A stretch of DNA of 64,000 nucleotides, from NCBI GenBank assembly GCA_963804955.1, contig CAWDSQ010000030.1, forward strand, positions 1 to 64,000, given 5' to 3'. Position numbers and translations under genes: made by a program. Position 1 is the first letter of the stretch, and the number at the start of each line of letters is the position of its first letter. Shown piece after piece: positions 21,877 through 26,555 of the stretch. The stretch comes from an uncultured delta proteobacterium. Lineage in GTDB: Bacteria; Desulfobacterota; WTBG01; CAIYCZ01; CAIRTM01. The notes under the pieces are model-generated. The model was given only the letters and a program-made list of their open reading frames with translations. It ran no database searches and was not told where the DNA came from.

Positions 21877-23662
21877 ATGATCAAGCAGCACAAAATAAGA
21901 AACATCGCTATTATAGCGCATGTCGACCATGGCAAGACGACGCTTGTCGATCAGCTTTTTAAGCAGAGCGGCATGTTCAGAGATAACCAGAATGTGGCCG
22001 AAAGGCTCATGGACTCGATTGATCTGGAGCGCGAGCGCGGCATAACCATCGCCTCCAAGAACGGCTCGTTCAAATACCAGGACTTTCTCATCAATATCAT
22101 CGATACGCCCGGCCATGCCGATTTCGGCGGGCCAGGTCGAGCGGGTGCTCAAAATGGCCGACGGCGCCGTGCTGCTGGTGGATGCGCAGGAAGGCCCCAT
22201 GCCGCAGACCTATTTCGTCTTGAAAAAGGCCCTTGCCATTGGTTTGCCCATTATCGTCGTCATCAACAAAATCGACAAGCCTGCTGCACGGTGCGACTGG
22301 GCCGTGGATCAGGTATTTGATTTGTTTGTGAAGCTTAATGCGCCCGAGGAGATTCTTGACTTCCCCATCGTCTACGCCTCTTCCCGCGACGGCTATGCCA
22401 TCAATGAGCTCGGCGACGAGCCATCATCCATGGAGCCGCTGCTGCAGAAGGTTATTATTCACATACCCGCTCCTGCCGGCGACCCGGAAGGCCCCTTGCA
22501 GCTGCTGGTGAGCTCCATTGACTATTCGCCCTATCTCGGCCGGCTGGGCATCGGCAAAGTCACATCAGGTACGCTCAATGTCAATAAAGACATCGTGATG
22601 GCCCGGCGCGACGGCACGCTTGCCCCTGCCCGCATCACCAAGGTGTACCGGTTTGAAAGCAATCAGAAGGTGCCGACCGACACGGCGGGCATCGGCGAAA
22701 TCGTGGCCATTGCCGGCATGGAGGATGTGACCGTAGGCGTCACCTTCACCGATCCCGACAACCCCATTCCTCTGCCTCCCACGGTGATTGATCCGCCGAC
22801 GGTGTCGATGAACTTTATCCCCAATGATTCTCCTTTTGCCGGCCTTGAAGGCCAGTTTGTCACCTCCCGCCAGCTCGACGAGCGGCTGGAGCGGGAGACT
22901 TTTTCCGATGTGGCGCTCGTGGTCAAGCCGCTTGAGGACCGCGTGGGCTTTGCGGTTTCCGGCCGGGGGGAGCTGCATCTCTCGATCCTGATTGAGCGCA
23001 TGCGCCGCGAGGGCTATGAGTTTCAGGCAACCCGTCCGCAGGTTATCATGCAGGAGAAGAACGGCGAGCTGCTCGAGCCCTATGAGGAGCTGACCATTGA
23101 TGTCGACGAGCTGTATATGGGCGCGGTCATTGAGCGCCTCGGCATGCGCAGGGGCCAGATCCGGGAGATGAAGCAGGGCCAGGGCATGACGCGGCTTTTA
23201 TATGCAATTCCCACCCGCGGGCTGCTGGGCTTTCGCTCCGAGTTTATGACCATCACCAAGGGCATGGGCGTTATGAACTATGTGTTCAGCCACTATGGCC
23301 CCCATGCCGGAGAGATGCGCAACCGCAAAAACGGCGCGCTGGTCGTGAAAGCACCCTGCACCACAGTAGCCTATTCGCTGTTCAACCTGCAGGAGCGCGG
23401 CAGGCTTTTTGTCGGGCCGGGCCTTCCCGTGTATTTGGGCCAGATCGTCGGCGAGAATGCCCGTGACGACGATATGATCGTCAATCCCGCCCGCGGCAAA
23501 AAGCTTACCAATATGCGCGCCGCAGGCTCCGATGAAAACGTCGTTCTCACCCCGCCGCTCAAAATGAGCCTTGAGGACTGCCTTGCCTGGATCAATGACG
23601 ACGAGCTGGTTGAGATAACCCCCAAGTCCATCCGGCTGCGCAAACGGCAGATGCCAAGATAG
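21877..23662 (+). CDS. typA: Translational GTPase TypA/BipA (frameshift near 22130)
   Basis: [51 protein letters not shown] and [14 protein letters not shown] motifs. Confidence 0.96.
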
Positions 23663-23671
23663 GGCAGGGGT

Positions 23672-23766
23672 GTAGGGGCGCGGTGCCCGCGCCGCAAGTT
23701 CGGAGTCATGAGTTCGGAGTTGGGAGTGCAGAAGCCGTAGGGTGGATTAAGCGCAGCGAATCCACC
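23672..23766 (+). repeat. GTAG-REP cluster; block A (23672-23724) recurs at 26150-26204
   Basis: GTAGGGGCGCGGTGCCCGCGCC...GAGTCATGAGTTCGGAGTT and GTAGGGTGGATTAAGCGCAGCGAATCCACC. Confidence 0.75.
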
Positions 23767-23883
23767 ACATAATGCAAAACACAGAACGTAGATACTATGA
23801 AGGAAAGGATCATTTGACAGGCGTCACGTCTCGGATATGCTAAAAAAGTCACGTCAATAACTTTCAGCATAAAGGAGACAAAC

Positions 23884-25027
23884 ATGGCGAACAATCAAAT
23901 GATCCAAACCGAGGCAAAGAATAGCACAGGTAAGCAGGTTTTGTACATATCCCTTGAACTGTCCAACAAGAAATGGAAACTGACGTTTGGGGACGGGCAA
24001 CGCAGGAGGGAGCGAACAATAACATCAGCAGATCTTGAAGAGTTTAAGGAAGAGCTGGTCAAGGCCCGGAAGCATTTTAGACTGGATGAAGATTGCGCCA
24101 TATACAGCTGTTATGAATCGGGACGAGACGGGTTTTGGATACACCGGTATTTGGAGAGCATAGGGATAAAGAATATCGTGGTGGACTCGGCCAGCATTGA
24201 AGTCGAACCGGAGGCATCGGCGGGCCAAGACGGACCGGGTAGATGGGTTAAAGTTGTTAACCATGCTGATACGGCACTTGGGAGGAGAGCAGAAAGTCTG
24301 GAGTGTGGTACGGGTTCCGACACAGGAACAGGAAGATGAACGGCGACTCAACCGAGAGAGGGATCGGCTGTTAAAGGAACGGGGAGCACATGTAAGCCGG
24401 ATAAAGTCGCTACTGATATTGTATGGGATACATGCAGAGGTAGGCAGTAAATTCCTGAAGCTGCTTGAGGAAGTGCGAGCCTGGGATGGCAGCAAACTGC
24501 CAGAGCATATCGTGCAGGAGATGAAGCGGGAGTATGAACGGATAGGGGTGCTGGACCTGCAGTTGAAGCAGATCAATGAAGAGAAGAAGCGGCAGCTTGC
24601 GGCAAGTCCTGAACAAATGCGCAAGGTAAGCAAGCTTGCCCGGATACGGGCAATTGGGCCGATCAGTTCATGGGATTTGATCTATGAGTTTTTTGGCTGG
24701 CGGGAATTCAAGAATGTGAAGCAGGTGGGAGGTGCAGCGGGTCTTGCGCCAATGCCCTACAGCAGCGGGGATATGCAGATCGAGCAAGGAATAAGCAAAG
24801 CGGGCAATCGGCGGATACGAGCTTTGCTGATAGAGCTAGCCTGGGGATGGCTGAGATGGCAGCCTGGCAGTAAGCTAAGCACGTGGTTTCATGAGCGCTT
24901 TGGAGGGGGCAACAAGCGGATGAGGCGAATAGGGATCGTGGCGCTGGCCAGAAAACTGCTCATAGCGCTGTGGAAGTATGTTGATCACGACATCGTGCCG
25001 GAAGGCGCGATACTAAAGATGGCATAA
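23884..25027 (+). CDS. IS110-family transposase/recombinase (frameshift near 24207)
   Basis: RuvC-like N domain (ISLELS, CYESG, AKTDRVDG) and C-terminal Tnp20 domain (IGPISS, GLAPMPYSSG, ISKAGN, VALARKL). Confidence 0.92.
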
Positions 25028-25029
25028 AG

Positions 25030-25310
25030 GACATACAACCGGAGGAAAAGGATTTGATAGGCATTCCAGTTGGTGAAGCCCTTCGTACCCGCCCTGGGTC
25101 TAAAAGCACCGTCTTTGTAGATTGAAGGCTTCTTAAACTGGTTGGACTGACGCCAATTGGCGCACGCAGTATGTGGATGCACGGTTATAATACCGGCACG
25201 GATAGAAGGTGGTTCCGGGCAAGGTTCCCGGAAAACGACAAGCCCAACCGGCCAAAACGGAATGAGTATCAAAAGATAAAGAAAGAAAAAAACAAAAAAA
25301 ATTAACCCGA
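25030..25310 (+). ncRNA. Putative bridge/seek RNA region in the IS right non-coding end
   Basis: Two stem-closed loops carry target-matching (ACCCGCCCT, GTAG) and donor-matching (AGTAT, ATAGAAG) segments. Exact RNA ends are unknown. Confidence 0.7.
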
Positions 25311-25375
25311 GGCTTGACAACGGTCCTCATAGAAGGGCGGGTGCCAACCCGCCGGAATCATACAAGCAGGGTCGG

Positions 25376-25454
25376 GGTCATCCCGCCCGTGCTGTTGCCC
25401 GGAATAACGACCTGCCCGTCAATACCTTCATCAATCCGAATTACTTCCTTTGCA
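25376..25454 (+). repeat. Direct repeat block B, copy 1
   Basis: GGTCATCCCGCCCGTGCTG...TTACTTCCTTTGCA, near-identical to 26282-26361. Confidence 0.9.
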
Positions 25455-25474
25455 CAGCCGTAGTACTACAACCG

Positions 25475-25876
25475 TTATTTCGCATGAATACGGGTAGAAA
25501 ATTCTCGGGGGGAAAGGATGCGGCATCCGCGGAATTTTTTTAGAATCAGCAAGTCATTGTCGCCCGTAATAAGATACTCGGCCTCGCCTGCTGCTGCAAG
25601 CCCGAGAATGTGGAGATCGTTCTGGTCGCGGCAGGAATCAATTGGGATACGTGCTGGTACAACCATTGTTGCATTTTCATGAATAAGCGCTGTGATGCTT
25701 TCGATTGTTTCAGCAGGCAGTTTTAATTTTTTACTGAAGGCGGTCCGCACCTCGTCGATCAAATCGGCGCTGATAAGTACTTGATGGCTGTCGAGACAAA
25801 GTTCAAAAACAGCTTCGCACAGACCATGGGCGGCAAATGCGGCGATGATAACGGACGAATCCAGCACGATCTTCAT
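25475..25876 (-). CDS. PIN-domain (VapC-like) toxin
   Basis: MKIVLDSSVIIAA...CRDQNDLHIL...YLITGDNDLL. Confidence 0.92.
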   Translation of the reverse strand: MKIVLDSSVIIAAFAAHGLCEAVFELCLDSHQVLISADLIDEVRTAFSKKLKLPAETIESITALIHENATMVVPARIPIDSCRDQNDLHILGLAAAGEAEYLITGDNDLLILKKFRGCRILSPREFSTRIHAK

Positions 25877-26088
25877 GAGATCGCCTTGAACACATCCTCA
25901 TCTGTCATAAAACCCTGCGCTTCGGCAAAAGGCAGCACCTGCTTGCGCAGTGCCCGAAATTTCTCAATTGCCACATAGCGGCGTATCGACTCCCGCACCA
26001 CATCACTGACTGGCTTGTGCTGCTTTTGGCTGATCTGCTGAAGGTCGGAACGCAGGTCATCCGGCAGGCGTATGGTTATTGTATTCAT
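25873..26088 (-). CDS. Ribbon-helix-helix (CopG-like) antitoxin
   Basis: MNTITIRLPDDL...SDVVRESIRRY...TDEDVF; ATGA overlap with the toxin gene. Confidence 0.88.
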   Translation of the reverse strand: MNTITIRLPDDLRSDLQQISQKQHKPVSDVVRESIRRYVAIEKFRALRKQVLPFAEAQGFMTDEDVFKAIS

Positions 26089-26096
26089 AGTAAGAC

Positions 26097-26125
26097 AATG
26101 TAGCACAAACAGGTTTTTCTGTCAA
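26097..26125 (-). promoter_or_regulatory. sigma70 promoter of the TA operon
   Basis: TTGACA-N17-TACATT, 8 nt before the antitoxin ATG. Confidence 0.6.
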
Positions 26126-26149
26126 TGCCGCGCTTGGTGGTCCGGAGTC

Positions 26150-26361
26150 GTAGGGGCGCGGTGCCCGCGCCCGCAAGTTCGGAGTCATGAGTTCGGAGTT
26201 TGGGTAAGATCAAGATTTCAAATTCAAAATTCAAAATTGAAGGCATGAAAATGCACGTTGTTCAGAAAATCGAAGATGTGAGGTCATCCCGCCCGTGCTG
26301 ATGCCCGGAATAACGACCTGCCAGTCAAATACCTTCATCAATCCGAATTACTTCCTTTGCA
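26150..26361 (+). repeat. Second copies of blocks A (26150-26204) and B (26282-26361), with TTCAAAA heptamer repeats between them
   Basis: Direct alignment by eye to 23672-23724 and 25376-25454. Confidence 0.85.
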
Positions 26362-26555
26362 AAGATGGTTGAGCACGTAGCACGCAGGGTGCGCTTCGCG
26401 CACCATTTTTTTTATCGTGCACCGTGCATACTCCGGAAAATAAATCAGCCGCATTTTTTTCTCTCAACTCAACTTATGAGCTAAATCAACAAAGTCAACA
26501 ACGTCCCCTAGTTGTTCCCTAGTTGTTCCCCATTAAAATAAATTCCGGCTACAGG

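Follow-up and report, generated by a model that had tools for sequence, protein, structure and literature searches.

Structure of the insertion sequence and its landing sites

The non-coding region at positions 25030-25310 of the window (the whole 64,000-base stretch of DNA analysed here) was found to lie within the 306-nt right end of a 1,542-bp insertion sequence of the IS110 family, the features of which are listed in Table 1. A whole-element search of the genome detected four full copies sharing 98-100% identity, a truncated left part of the element, a weak match to the left end, and no solo right ends. The similarity stopped exactly at the borders 23792 and 25333. The left junction of the window copy read GTAG/ATACT (from 23788) and the right junction CATAGA/AG/GGCGGGT (from 25328); the other three full copies each had ..GTAG on one side and AGGRCGGGTGCYAACCCGCC on the other, and the 2-nt core AG was present at both junctions in every copy. 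These borders were supported by an empty site, as a contig of the DNA run X1 joined 23789 to 25334. The 1,544 bases omitted at this joint corresponded to the element plus one copy of the core (1,542 + 2), the two core bases fitting either side.

Table 1. Positions in the window of the element, its target and the segments assigned to the predicted guide RNA
Feature	Position	Strand	Remarks
Left target dinucleotide GT and left core copy AG	23788..23791	+	Core AG at 23790-23791; GTAG ends 5/5 left junctions in the genome
Insertion sequence, IS110 family, IS1111-type layout	23792..25333	+	1,542 bp; left end of 92 nt, transposase gene, right end of 306 nt
Promoter-like TTGACA-16-TATGCT in the left end, upstream of the transposase start codon	23814..23841	+	Sole match in 23700-25450; consensus match only, shuffles giving a mean of 1.7
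Transposase gene, broken by one extra C at 24204	23884..25027	+	Reads as ORFs 23884-24339 and 24197-25027
Predicted bridge/seek RNA gene, conserved core	25066..25256	+	Nucleotide-level conservation with homologous right ends; downstream of the ORF
Target-loop closing stem, 5' arm GAAGCCCTTC	25075..25084	+	Consensus columns 46-57 pair with 134-147; compensatory changes at all pairs
Right-target guide	25086..25095	+	Complement of the top-strand core and right target AGGGCGGGTG; last pair U-G
Target-loop inner stem-loop GGGUC ... ACCG	25096..25111	+	Columns 74-77 pair with 114-117; 91.8% of cells paired; 4/4 pairs changed on both sides
Left-target guide UUUGU plus core AG	25114..25120	+	Top-strand sense of left target plus core; in the window copy only GU and AG match
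Handshake-type AU after the core, target loop	25121..25122	+	Equals the first two left-end bases
Target-loop closing stem, 3' arm GAAGGCTTC	25124..25132	+	Motif located; consensus pairing
Donor guide AGUAU	25168..25172	+	Complementary to the first five left-end bases, ATACT
Donor-loop inner hairpin	25176..25199	+	Columns 200-210 pair with 241-248; 92.1% of cells paired; 6/7 pairs changed on both sides
Donor guide AUAGA plus core AG	25202..25208	+	Identical to right end plus core, within CGGATAGAAG
Handshake-type G, donor loop	25209	+	Equals the first right-target base
Outward-facing TTGACA	25314..25319	+	14 nt from the right terminus; a circular form would give TTGACA-17-TACTAT across the junction
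Right core copy AG (25334-25335) and REP-like target hairpin GGGCGGGTGCCAACCCGCC	25334..25353	+	Same flank in 4/4 copies
Target-site sequence to be joined with the right end-AG-left end donor			TTTGTAGGGCGGGTG

The insertion point followed the GTAG that heads a REP-like hairpin. With up to three mismatches allowed, this hairpin was found at 18 sites of the genome, 14 of which were away from the element and often arranged as inverted pairs. One unoccupied example is TTCGTAGGGCGGGTGCTAACCCGCC at position 162359 of contig C24, and further GTAG-headed palindromes were also present. The landing sites of the element in this genome are accordingly conserved GTAG-headed hairpins. An integron attC reading, which had been prompted by a neighbouring PIN/RHH pair and by GCTAAC/GTTAGC in the loops, was dropped because the units were GTAG-headed palindromes in inverted pairs and thus REP-like. 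No link to a Y1 REP-associated transposase is claimed either. PF01797 was matched at position 145806 of contig C30 and at position 65206 of contig C20, and the flanks of the former lacked a hairpin of this family.

The two ends of the element shared a subterminal inverted repeat (ATA-CTATGA-A-GGA on the left and T-CTATGA-GGA in the reverse complement of the right end), which was 6 bp when perfect and 9 bp with a 1-base gap. It was absent from the 25 longest pairs of a repeat search with a minimum of 9, the criterion for the IS1111 group being 7-17 bp.

When compared with the other three copies, the transposase gene of the window copy carried the extra C at 24204 and three substitutions at most 17 bases from it. 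The three other copies, one with its gene at positions 74544-75683 of contig C30, encode an intact, uninterrupted protein of 380 aa (P0001), so that the frame-corrected transposase proposed for experiments in the preliminary description is needless. The protein matched the model NF033542 ("IS110 family RNA-guided transposase") at residues 22-367 with 170.7 bits against a cut-off of 140, and the C-terminal domain PF02371 was present (E = 1.8e-16). The N-terminal RuvC-like DEDD domain PF01548 scored 24.6 bits, under the cut-off of 29, and the 151-aa N-terminal fragment encoded by the window copy gave no match to it. Among 33 relatives, E78, D117, D120 and the residues of K-T-D-x-x-D were invariant and position 25 was a nearly invariant E; on the basis of the KTDxxD motif and a weak alignment, E78, D117, D120 and position 25 may correspond to the catalytic tetrad. 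The motif G-L-x-P-x4-S-G, present as GLAPMPYSSG in P0001, was likewise conserved, with G286, L287, P289, S294 and G295 invariant in the same relatives. The only solved structures among the relatives were those of the IS621 and ISCro4 transposases. A profile of the family matched these chains with E about 1e-9 in the C-terminal domain only, and placed ..pyssG.. on ..YESG.. of ISCro4, the S-G of the catalytic serine loop.

Guide segments in the non-coding right end

Among kin genomes, the intact protein was matched in only one of 60 (54% identity; E <= 1e-30), and the homologue set was therefore taken from two collection scans of at least 80 loci each; relatives at 70-87% were seen as proteins outside this set. 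A nhmmer search with the right end matched homologous loci on the + strand only, and all but one of them (L069) lay within approximately 600 nt downstream of a transposase match. In total, 133 right ends were aligned with MAFFT, and 102 usable loci provided 85 different target guides.

The RNAalifold consensus of the 133 sequences contained 24 base pairs, with compensatory changes in 22 of them. The consensus included the closing stem and the inner stem of loop 1 and the inner hairpin of loop 2, and only these three helices were well supported. The fold of the single sequence (25028-25335) was no better than those of shuffled sequences (z = -1.02; 14/100 shuffles folded as well) and taken singly lends no support. 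When the constrained fold of the window copy was projected onto the sequence-based MAFFT alignment, only 17-70% of cells were paired in the outer stem, in the stem that closes the donor domain and in two side hairpins (25151-25162 and 25213-25233); these four elements are poorly supported predictions from the window copy's own fold alone. A swapped-partner control based on per-sequence folding hardly separated the native (131/133) from the swapped combinations (108/133). A search of 23000-26500 on both strands against Rfam gave no match at E up to 1.

The six motifs pointed out in the preliminary description (25075-25084, 25087-25095, 25117-25120, 25124-25132, 25168-25172 and 25202-25208) were all located at these positions. 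The motif ACCCGCCCT at 25087-25095 occurred once on the + strand of the window, and its reverse complement was also found once, at 25334, precisely at the right junction, confirming that it is the exact reverse complement of the core plus the right target. The positions of the two target guides stood as described, but their ends were revised, the right-target guide reaching approximately 25086-25095 and the left-target guide 25114-25120. Short motifs such as GTAG and AGTAT were not significant alone in 306 nt, and neither was the single fold, and the weight of the RNA reading therefore comes from the comparison of homologues.

This comparison showed covariation between the guides and the DNA of each homologue. 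The right-target guide matched the right flank of its own locus at eight or more of ten positions in 49 of the 85 loci with distinct guides, while permutation gave a mean of 1.1 and a maximum of 6 such loci. The mean match in the 85 loci was 7.48, when compared with 4.28 (sd 0.12) after permutation. The other 36 loci remained below 8/10, some of them because the register was shifted by -1 or the junction had been called wrongly. An unbiased scan recovered each of the four guide segments, along with two positions of the handshake type. It found RNA positions 25087-25094 to be complementary to right flank +8 to +2, and 25114-25118 to be identical to left flank -5 to -1 (observed 0.66-0.96, expected 0.25-0.49, n = 113), the latter in agreement with a second analysis. 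Positions 25170 and 25169 were complementary to left-end bases 3 and 4, respectively (0.73 against 0.48 expected and 0.84 against 0.65 expected). The strongest single signal of the right junction was that of 25209 (alignment column 312), equal to right flank +2 (observed 0.85, expected 0.37, n = 93). The left-target guide matched only two to three of five non-core bases at the four full insertions of this genome.

For the donor loop, the 5' guide of 5 nt was compared with the left end in 88 distinct combinations. The pairing was perfect in 28 and became so in 12 more when G-T pairs were allowed, whereas the remaining 48 contained at least one true mismatch. Compensatory variants were seen as five pairs of guide and left end, namely AGTAT/ATACT, AGCAT/ATGCT, ATTAT/ATAAT, AGGAT/ATCCT and AGTTT/AAACT. 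This guide was without core pairing, GU being present where CU was expected. The 3' strand of the donor loop was nearly invariant across homologues, as were the element ends. In the motif CGGATAGAAG, seven positions were invariant (among them C151, G152, T155, A156, G157 and A159) and three more were at least 90% conserved. The first two left-end bases and positions 25121-25122 were AT/AT in 73 of 88 distinct combinations, AA/AA in four, AC/AC in one and discordant in ten; with 78 of 88 concordant and little variation to test, the comparison lends modest support to a handshake-type role for 25121-25122.

The four guide assignments in a two-loop bridge or seek RNA of an IS110-family recombinase, first read from one copy, were thus borne out by covariation across homologues, and we consider it highly probable that the right non-coding end of this element with an IS1111-type layout encodes such an RNA. 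The work also provides a comparative data set, an alignment of 133 right ends in which about 85 different natural target guides were compared with the flanks of their own loci. From it, the four guides of an IS1111-type RNA and its handshake positions are readable with no experiment. In terms of annotation, an unnamed insertion sequence now has fixed borders, a target and a guide RNA.

A scan of 23700-25450 detected no sigma-70-like promoter upstream of the RNA and no terminator-like site; the absence of such a promoter would be in keeping with an RNA that is processed out of read-through transcripts. Of 99 distinct homologous right ends, 98 carried the outward-facing TTGACA, with at most one mismatch, at a distance of 11-19 nt from the terminus. 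The RNA-library run X20 contained a 151-nt contig covering 25069-25219 with one difference. This contig is a hint of expression of the guide RNA, as the library may contain DNA and contigs are silent on strand, ends and level. Most of the transposase gene was without cover in the same run, and only pieces of the transposase genes of relatives were present in X19 and in X18, which is probably a DNA run; these gaps are not evidence.

Alternative explanations

The matches could be imagined to arise with no guide RNA at all, as DNA-level binding sites of the transposase at the ends and a target fragment left by imprecise excision, the helices then belonging to a terminator or a stabiliser in the 3' UTR. 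The RNA transcript is a prediction, its single-sequence fold is unremarkable, and ATAGAAG within the right end repeats the terminus and could be taken for a second, internal end-binding site, all of which would suit this explanation. We nevertheless regard it as very improbable. The 5' target segment and the flank are related as reverse complements and not as copies, and the segment changes with the flank in the 49 of 85 loci noted above, in which set 85 different sequences are represented. Both segments are fixed in internal loops between helices with compensatory changes, and no terminator-like site was detected in the scan of 23700-25450. In addition, experiments on the IS1111 family showed that the downstream non-coding region yields an RNA which is purified together with the transposase and determines the target (PMC11187229). 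It is scarcely credible that the hairpin GGGCGGGTGCCAACCCGCC belongs to the element, which would move the right border to 25354 and leave ACCCGCCCT pairing with the element's own end instead of a target. All four copies do carry the hairpin directly after CATAGAAG, with inter-copy similarity continuing to ..ACCCGCCG, but the element-free hairpins, some of which follow GTA or GTAG, speak against this border. A paralogue of the window insertion locus at position 253053 of contig C7 likewise has the hairpin without the element, and the empty-site contig joins 23789 directly to 25334. The hairpin was rejected as part of the element on these grounds, and the sequence after CATAGAAG in homologues also varies by locus and tracks the guide.

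A separate possibility concerns the window copy only and is compatible with the guide-RNA explanation, namely that the RNA is real and this copy is a dead relic, immobile and making no contribution, whose RNA gene is intact only through its youth. The extra C and the three substitutions within 17 bases of it point in this direction, and so does the right end, in which a single site distinguishes this copy from the others, as would be the case for recent copies. However, the variable sites among the four genomic copies numbered 1/306 in the right end and 35/1,144 in the ORF (Fisher p = 0.003), which argues for constraint on the RNA region, four copies being few for such a comparison. The neighbouring typA was likewise split between two frames, with the break near 22125; single-base assembly errors are thus possible, and the frameshift at 24204 may not be real. 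We consider a relic possible but rather doubtful. If the frameshift is real, the window copy, with its intact RNA gene, would be movable only with the protein from one of the three intact copies.

Proposed mechanism and relation to known systems

The observations can be arranged into the following route, which follows the published mechanism of the family. The recombinase would excise the element as a circle joining the right end, AG and the left end, and the circle junction would form the promoter TTGACA-17-TACTAT. Transcripts starting there would cover the transposase gene and extend into the right end; the RNA would be cut out of them and bound by the recombinase. The RNA is predicted to contain two guide loops, a target loop closed by 25075-25084/25124-25132 and a donor loop. 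The left-target guide has the same sense as the top strand and would therefore pair with the bottom strand, and the same is expected for the donor guide at 25202-25208, as it is identical to the right end plus core. Acting at the AG core, the complex of recombinase and RNA would then recombine the circle junction with a REP-like hairpin headed by GTAG. The handshake positions 25121-25122 and 25209 would match the partner DNA as it stands after strand exchange.

The element is a well-resolved natural case of the system described in 2024 and not a new system, and the known working of these systems is unchanged by the finding. The location of the RNA downstream of the ORF, noted in the preliminary description, is real but not distinctive, as it defines the IS1111 type (PMC11208160; PMC11187229). 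The element shares a long non-coding region downstream of the transposase gene with those encoding the seekRNAs of ISEc11, ISPa11, ISKpn4 and ISPst6 (PMC11187229). The description of a bottom-strand guide placed first was correct in that the first guide has bottom-strand sequence; it pairs, however, with the top strand. In all IS1111-family seekRNAs tested, the bottom-strand segment is preceded on its 5' side by the one complementary to the top strand (PMC11187229), and the RNA here agrees in this order and in the overlap of the two segments at the insertion point. The lack of an own RNA promoter, with only a circle-junction promoter, and the motif G-L-x-P-x4-S-G, given as G-L-x-P-x4-S(T)-G for the family, are further points of agreement (PMC11187229). 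The element therefore appears to work and to be laid out like the IS1111 type; this assignment is based on layout, the transposase of 380 aa being outside the 330-350 aa of the family (PMC11187229). In contrast to the published short seekRNAs, for which target matches only are described in PMC11187229, the donor loop was resolved here as well, by comparison and from sequence alone.

As in the bridge RNA of IS621, two internal loops each hold two guides pairing with opposite DNA strands around a 2-nt core, and the target guides, judging from the published pairing rules, take the RNA-sense forms N7-CU (5') and Nx-AG (3') required by the IS621 target ATCAGGC-CT-AC (PMC11208160). The target is also the GTAG/CTAC head of a REP, and a junction promoter can arise from an outward -35 box (PMC11208160). 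The AG core of the preliminary description was present, but it is the CT core of IS621 read on the other strand and is not distinctive. The core-adjacent positions of the 3' strands covaried with non-cognate DNA, as do the handshake guides of IS621 (PMC11208158). A full-text literature search, in which the texts were covered in part, found handshake guides described for IS110-type RNAs only and no link to IS1111. The differences from IS621 are that the donor 5' guide here lacks core pairing, that the proteins are only distantly related, and that the RNA gene lies in the right end downstream of the gene, that of IS621 being in the left end (PMC11208160). Because of this location, the order of guides and the core are mirrored relative to the transposase gene.

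The family search gave 8,000 relatives at E <= 1e-20, mostly from metagenomes of sediment, soil and groundwater. Among the plasmid matches listed, the transposase showed approximately 25-29% identity over partial lengths to genes of the IS4321 and ISEc45 families, the IS4321-family gene being 29% identical over 36% of the query. The short subterminal repeat (CTATGA, 1-base gap, GGA) is a further difference from the IS1111-family elements with published seekRNAs. We consider it an even question whether the element represents a sizeable branch of the family that has not yet been named. Such a branch would be characterized by transposases of approximately 380 aa that share no more than about 29% identity with the named IS4321/ISEc45 families among the plasmid matches listed, and by almost fixed donor ends and donor loop with an often rewritten target loop. 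Its RNA would map position for position onto the bridge RNA of IS621, including both handshake guides. If so, the "reversed" order of the IS1111 type would be the IS621 mechanism with the block of gene plus RNA turned round relative to the recombination site, and the branch would supply a ready-made set of natural guide-target pairs that share an unchanging scaffold.

ISPpu9/Ssr9 of Pseudomonas putida (PMC12288879) resembles the present case in being an IS110-family element in REPs, with a small-RNA gene downstream of the transposase and several copies in the genome; additional solo copies of the RNA gene are reported there, and the whole-element search found none here, the comparison being made by description only. 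ISPa11 also has a folded-repeat target, and its REP begins with GTAGGGCG (PMC13604230, Table 1), which is very similar to GTAGGGCGGGTG of the present target. The insertion point listed for ISPa11, between GG and CG, lies two bases to the right of the point used by the element here (PMC13604230).

Copies of the element and its target

The stretch at 25030-25310, which the preliminary description read as a bridge RNA with target and donor guides, was found to be the non-coding region 3' of an IS110-family transposase gene, and all the motifs listed for it were present at the stated positions. With 23780-25345 as query, the genome of the window proved to have four full copies (98-100% identical), a truncated one with the left 300 bases, and a weak match. 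Aligning the copies together with their flanks gave an element of 1,542 bp with AG at both sides, preceded in each case by ..GTAG and followed by AGGRCGGGTGCYAACCCGCC, beyond which the copies diverged. The transposase gene of the window copy is split, with PF02371 found on the C-terminal ORF. The other three copies do not have the C at 24204 and encode an unbroken 380-aa protein, P0001, which passed the curated NF033542 model ("IS110 family RNA-guided transposase"; 170.7 bits, cut-off 140) and scored below the cut-off of PF01548. In the alignment of transposase relatives, residue 25 of P0001, which may correspond to the first catalytic Asp of the DEDD tetrad, is a Glu that hardly varies within this branch. 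The typA/bipA GTPase gene directly upstream is also split into overlapping frames, so that a 3-kb stretch holds two broken genes, which makes errors of single bases in the assembly a live possibility. Variable sites among the four copies numbered 35 of 1,144 in the ORF and one in the 306 nt of the right end (Fisher p = 0.003 for these two regions), with 3 of 92 in the left end. The right-end site, 25040, lies upstream of the conserved RNA core.

The insertion target is the adjoining hairpin, with AG as the core. The alternative, that the hairpin is part of the element, was rejected on the observations that follow. The 19-mer GGGCGGGTGCCAACCCGCC occurs at 18 places in the genome with at most 3 mismatches, 14 of which do not adjoin the element; an element-free paralogue of the whole insertion unit (palindrome GTAGGGTGGATTAAGCGCAGCGAATCCACC, spacer and target hairpin) is present with its flanks on contig C7; and a contig from the DNA metagenome run X1 joins 23789 straight to 25334, leaving out 1,544 bases, and 2 bases at the joint fit either side. 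Several GGGCGGGTGCCAACCCGCC places have GTA or GTAG in front, and they often form inverted pairs with a spacing of about 40 bp. Further GTAG-headed palindromes exist in the genome, including GTAGGGTGGATTAAGCGCAGCGAATCCACC itself, 25 bp left of the insertion, and a small family of GTAG+hairpin repeats is recognizable, inverted pairs being common. The target hairpin resembles REP elements; the E. coli REPs quoted by Durrant et al. (PMC11208160) end in ..GGCCTAC(G), or GTAGGCC.. on the opposite strand. PF01797, the Y1 transposase domain, was above the cut-off at two places; the flanks of the C30 match contained no GTAG-family hairpin, and no link to a REP-like repeat was found there.

Other observations concern the surroundings of the copies. 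The truncated copy, retaining only the left end and the first ~77 codons (94% DNA identity), adjoins an unoccupied target hairpin of opposite orientation. The front of one full copy is abutted by a 36-bp piece, made up of left-end bases 1-21 followed by AGTATTAGCCGGTAG and preceded by ..CTGTAG, which may be a leftover of an earlier insertion or of aberrant recombination. Directly right of the window insertion, genes for a PIN-domain and a ribbon-helix-helix protein overlap by 4 bases and look like a VapBC-type toxin-antitoxin pair.

Coordinates of the element and of associated features
Feature	Location	Strand or remark
Element	23792-25333
Transposase ORFs, window copy	23884-24339; 24197-25027
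Promoter-like site	23814-23841	left end
Palindrome GTAGGGTGGATTAAGCGCAGCGAATCCACC	23737-23770	GTAG-headed
typA/bipA frames	21877-22320; 22115-23662	break near 22125-22135
PIN-domain protein	25475-25876	-
Ribbon-helix-helix protein	25873-26106	-
Element-free paralogue	C7:253053-253114
Truncated copy (L005)	C7:252705-253003
Full copy with 36-bp piece (L004)	C24:162429-163984	-
GTAG+hairpin repeats	C24:162359-162441; C24:165122-165198; C20:4863-4924; C33:124-182	examples
PF01797 matches	C30:145806-146141; C20:65206-65433
Tandem right-end modules	L088:~1640-2400	Burkholderia ambifaria scaffold
Stretch with the donor-loop insertion	L052:3012-3236

Covariation of the guides with flanks and ends

The protein family is very large. 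At least 8,000 candidates were scored by the word-index search, all at E of 1e-20 or better. The best-scoring relatives came from sediment, soil and groundwater, and two named ones are Geobacteraceae and Deltaproteobacteria MAGs. An alignment of 33 relatives led to a sample of at least 80 species-genome loci and at least 80 metagenome-contig loci with 46-58% protein identity. In these loci, nhmmer matched the window's right end on the plus strand only, within ~600 nt 3' of the transposase match except at the single locus L069. With up to 1 mismatch allowed, the decamer CGGATAGAAG was located 80-400 nt past the end of the protein match in 145 of the 161 loci; in the other 16 it is absent or the sequence ends early. 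After identical, curtailed or N-containing sequences were dropped, 132 regions and the window formed the right-end alignment. Locus L088 carries two tandem right-end modules behind one transposase gene, with CGGATAGAAG at 1731 and 2147, CATAGAAG 244 nt after each, and differing target guides.

To test the right target, each locus contributed the ten bases that precede the conserved GGGU (25086-25095 in the window). Their reverse complement was set against the twelve bases starting at the core of that locus's CATAGAAG junction, at offsets 0-2. A full-flank junction was available in 102 of 133 rows, reduced to one row per distinct guide (n = 85). At least 8 of 10 positions matched in 49 of the 85 guides and at least 9 in 27, while guides dealt to other loci reached 8 in a mean of 1.1 and a maximum of 6 cases (1,000 permutations); the mean match was 7.48 versus 4.28 permuted (sd 0.12). 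Some of the 36 scores under 8 are -1 register shifts or doubtful junction calls.

An unbiased scan of each variable RNA column against each variable DNA position (113 rows at the left junction, 93 at the right) gave as top signals identity of left-flank positions -5..-1 with RNA 25114-25118, complementarity of right-flank +8..+2 to RNA 25087-25094 and of left-end bases 3 and 4 to RNA 25170 and 25169, and identity of the first right-flank base with RNA 25209. The guide-target covariation proposed in the preliminary description as a check was observed across homologues, and the bridge RNA interpretation is supported.

In the donor loop, the 5' guide and the left end showed five compensatory variants (AGTAT/ATACT, AGCAT/ATGCT, ATTAT/ATAAT, AGGAT/ATCCT and AGTTT/AAACT). 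This pairing is imperfect, being perfect in 28 of 88 combinations, complete with G-T pairs in 12 more and truly mismatched in 48. The 3' guide ATAGAAG lies within CGGATAGAAG, of which 7 positions are invariant and 3 more at least 90% conserved; as it equals the right end plus core, which is equally constant, it is unable to covary. At locus L052, a 48-nt insertion (a 24-nt unit twice) separates the inner hairpin of this loop from the 3' guide.

RNA structure and promoters

RNAalifold on the right-end alignment detected three helices, two of them in loop 1 (its closing and inner stems) and one, the inner hairpin, in loop 2; compensatory changes were present in 22 of their 24 pairs. When the window's own constrained fold was projected onto this sequence-based alignment, both inner helices held (91.8% and 92.1% of cells paired), and the outer stem, the donor-domain closing stem and two side hairpins did not. 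Per-sequence folding with swapped 3' parts did not discriminate (native 131/133 versus swapped 108/133). We thus claim only the three helices.

The scan of 23700-25450 detected no promoter-like site ahead of the RNA, the only one being in the left end. The right end has TTGACA 14 nt from its terminus, and joining it via AG to the left end would create a junction promoter, TTGACA-17-TACTAT. TTGACA (at most 1 mismatch) was found 11-19 nt from the terminus in 98 of 99 distinct homologous right ends, most often at 16-17 nt, a spacing at which GATACT would be its -10 partner. ISEc11 is alike in that the junction promoter was the only one found, and its short RNA was concluded to derive from a longer one (Siddiquee et al., PMC11187229). 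A 151-nt contig from the metatranscriptome library X20 spans 25069-25219 with one difference, and is taken as only a weak hint of RNA expression.

Comparison with IS621 and IS1111-type elements

In IS621, a CT core is included in the pairing and the natural target is ATCAGGCCTAC (Durrant et al., PMC11208160). The target guides of the present element, ACCCGCC-CU and UUUGU-AG in RNA sense, share the form that IS621 must have for ATCAGGC-CT-AC. From this we infer that the AG core of the preliminary description is the CT core viewed from the transposase-sense strand. The bases after the core on the 3' strands, AU at 25121-25122 and G at 25209, match the starts of the left end and the right target, and so match the partner DNA as after exchange, like the handshake guides of IS621, which covary across IS110 orthologues (Hiraizumi et al., PMC11208158).

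The IS1111 family has its non-coding region downstream of the gene and a guide order opposite to that of the IS110-type ISEc21 (Siddiquee et al., PMC11187229), and the element agrees on both. It also shares the layout and the G-L-x-P-x4-S-G motif. Three features agree less well: its transposase is 380 aa long, where 330-350 aa is the length quoted for the family; its subterminal inverted repeat is short; and named IS1111-type plasmid genes, among the matches listed, had only 25-29% identity over part of the length. The element therefore works and is laid out like an IS1111-type one, the type being assigned by layout, motif and guide order. Structures have been solved for two relatives only, the IS621 and ISCro4 transposases, matched at E ~1e-9 in the C-terminal domain. 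The guide RNA system is of a kind already published in 2024.
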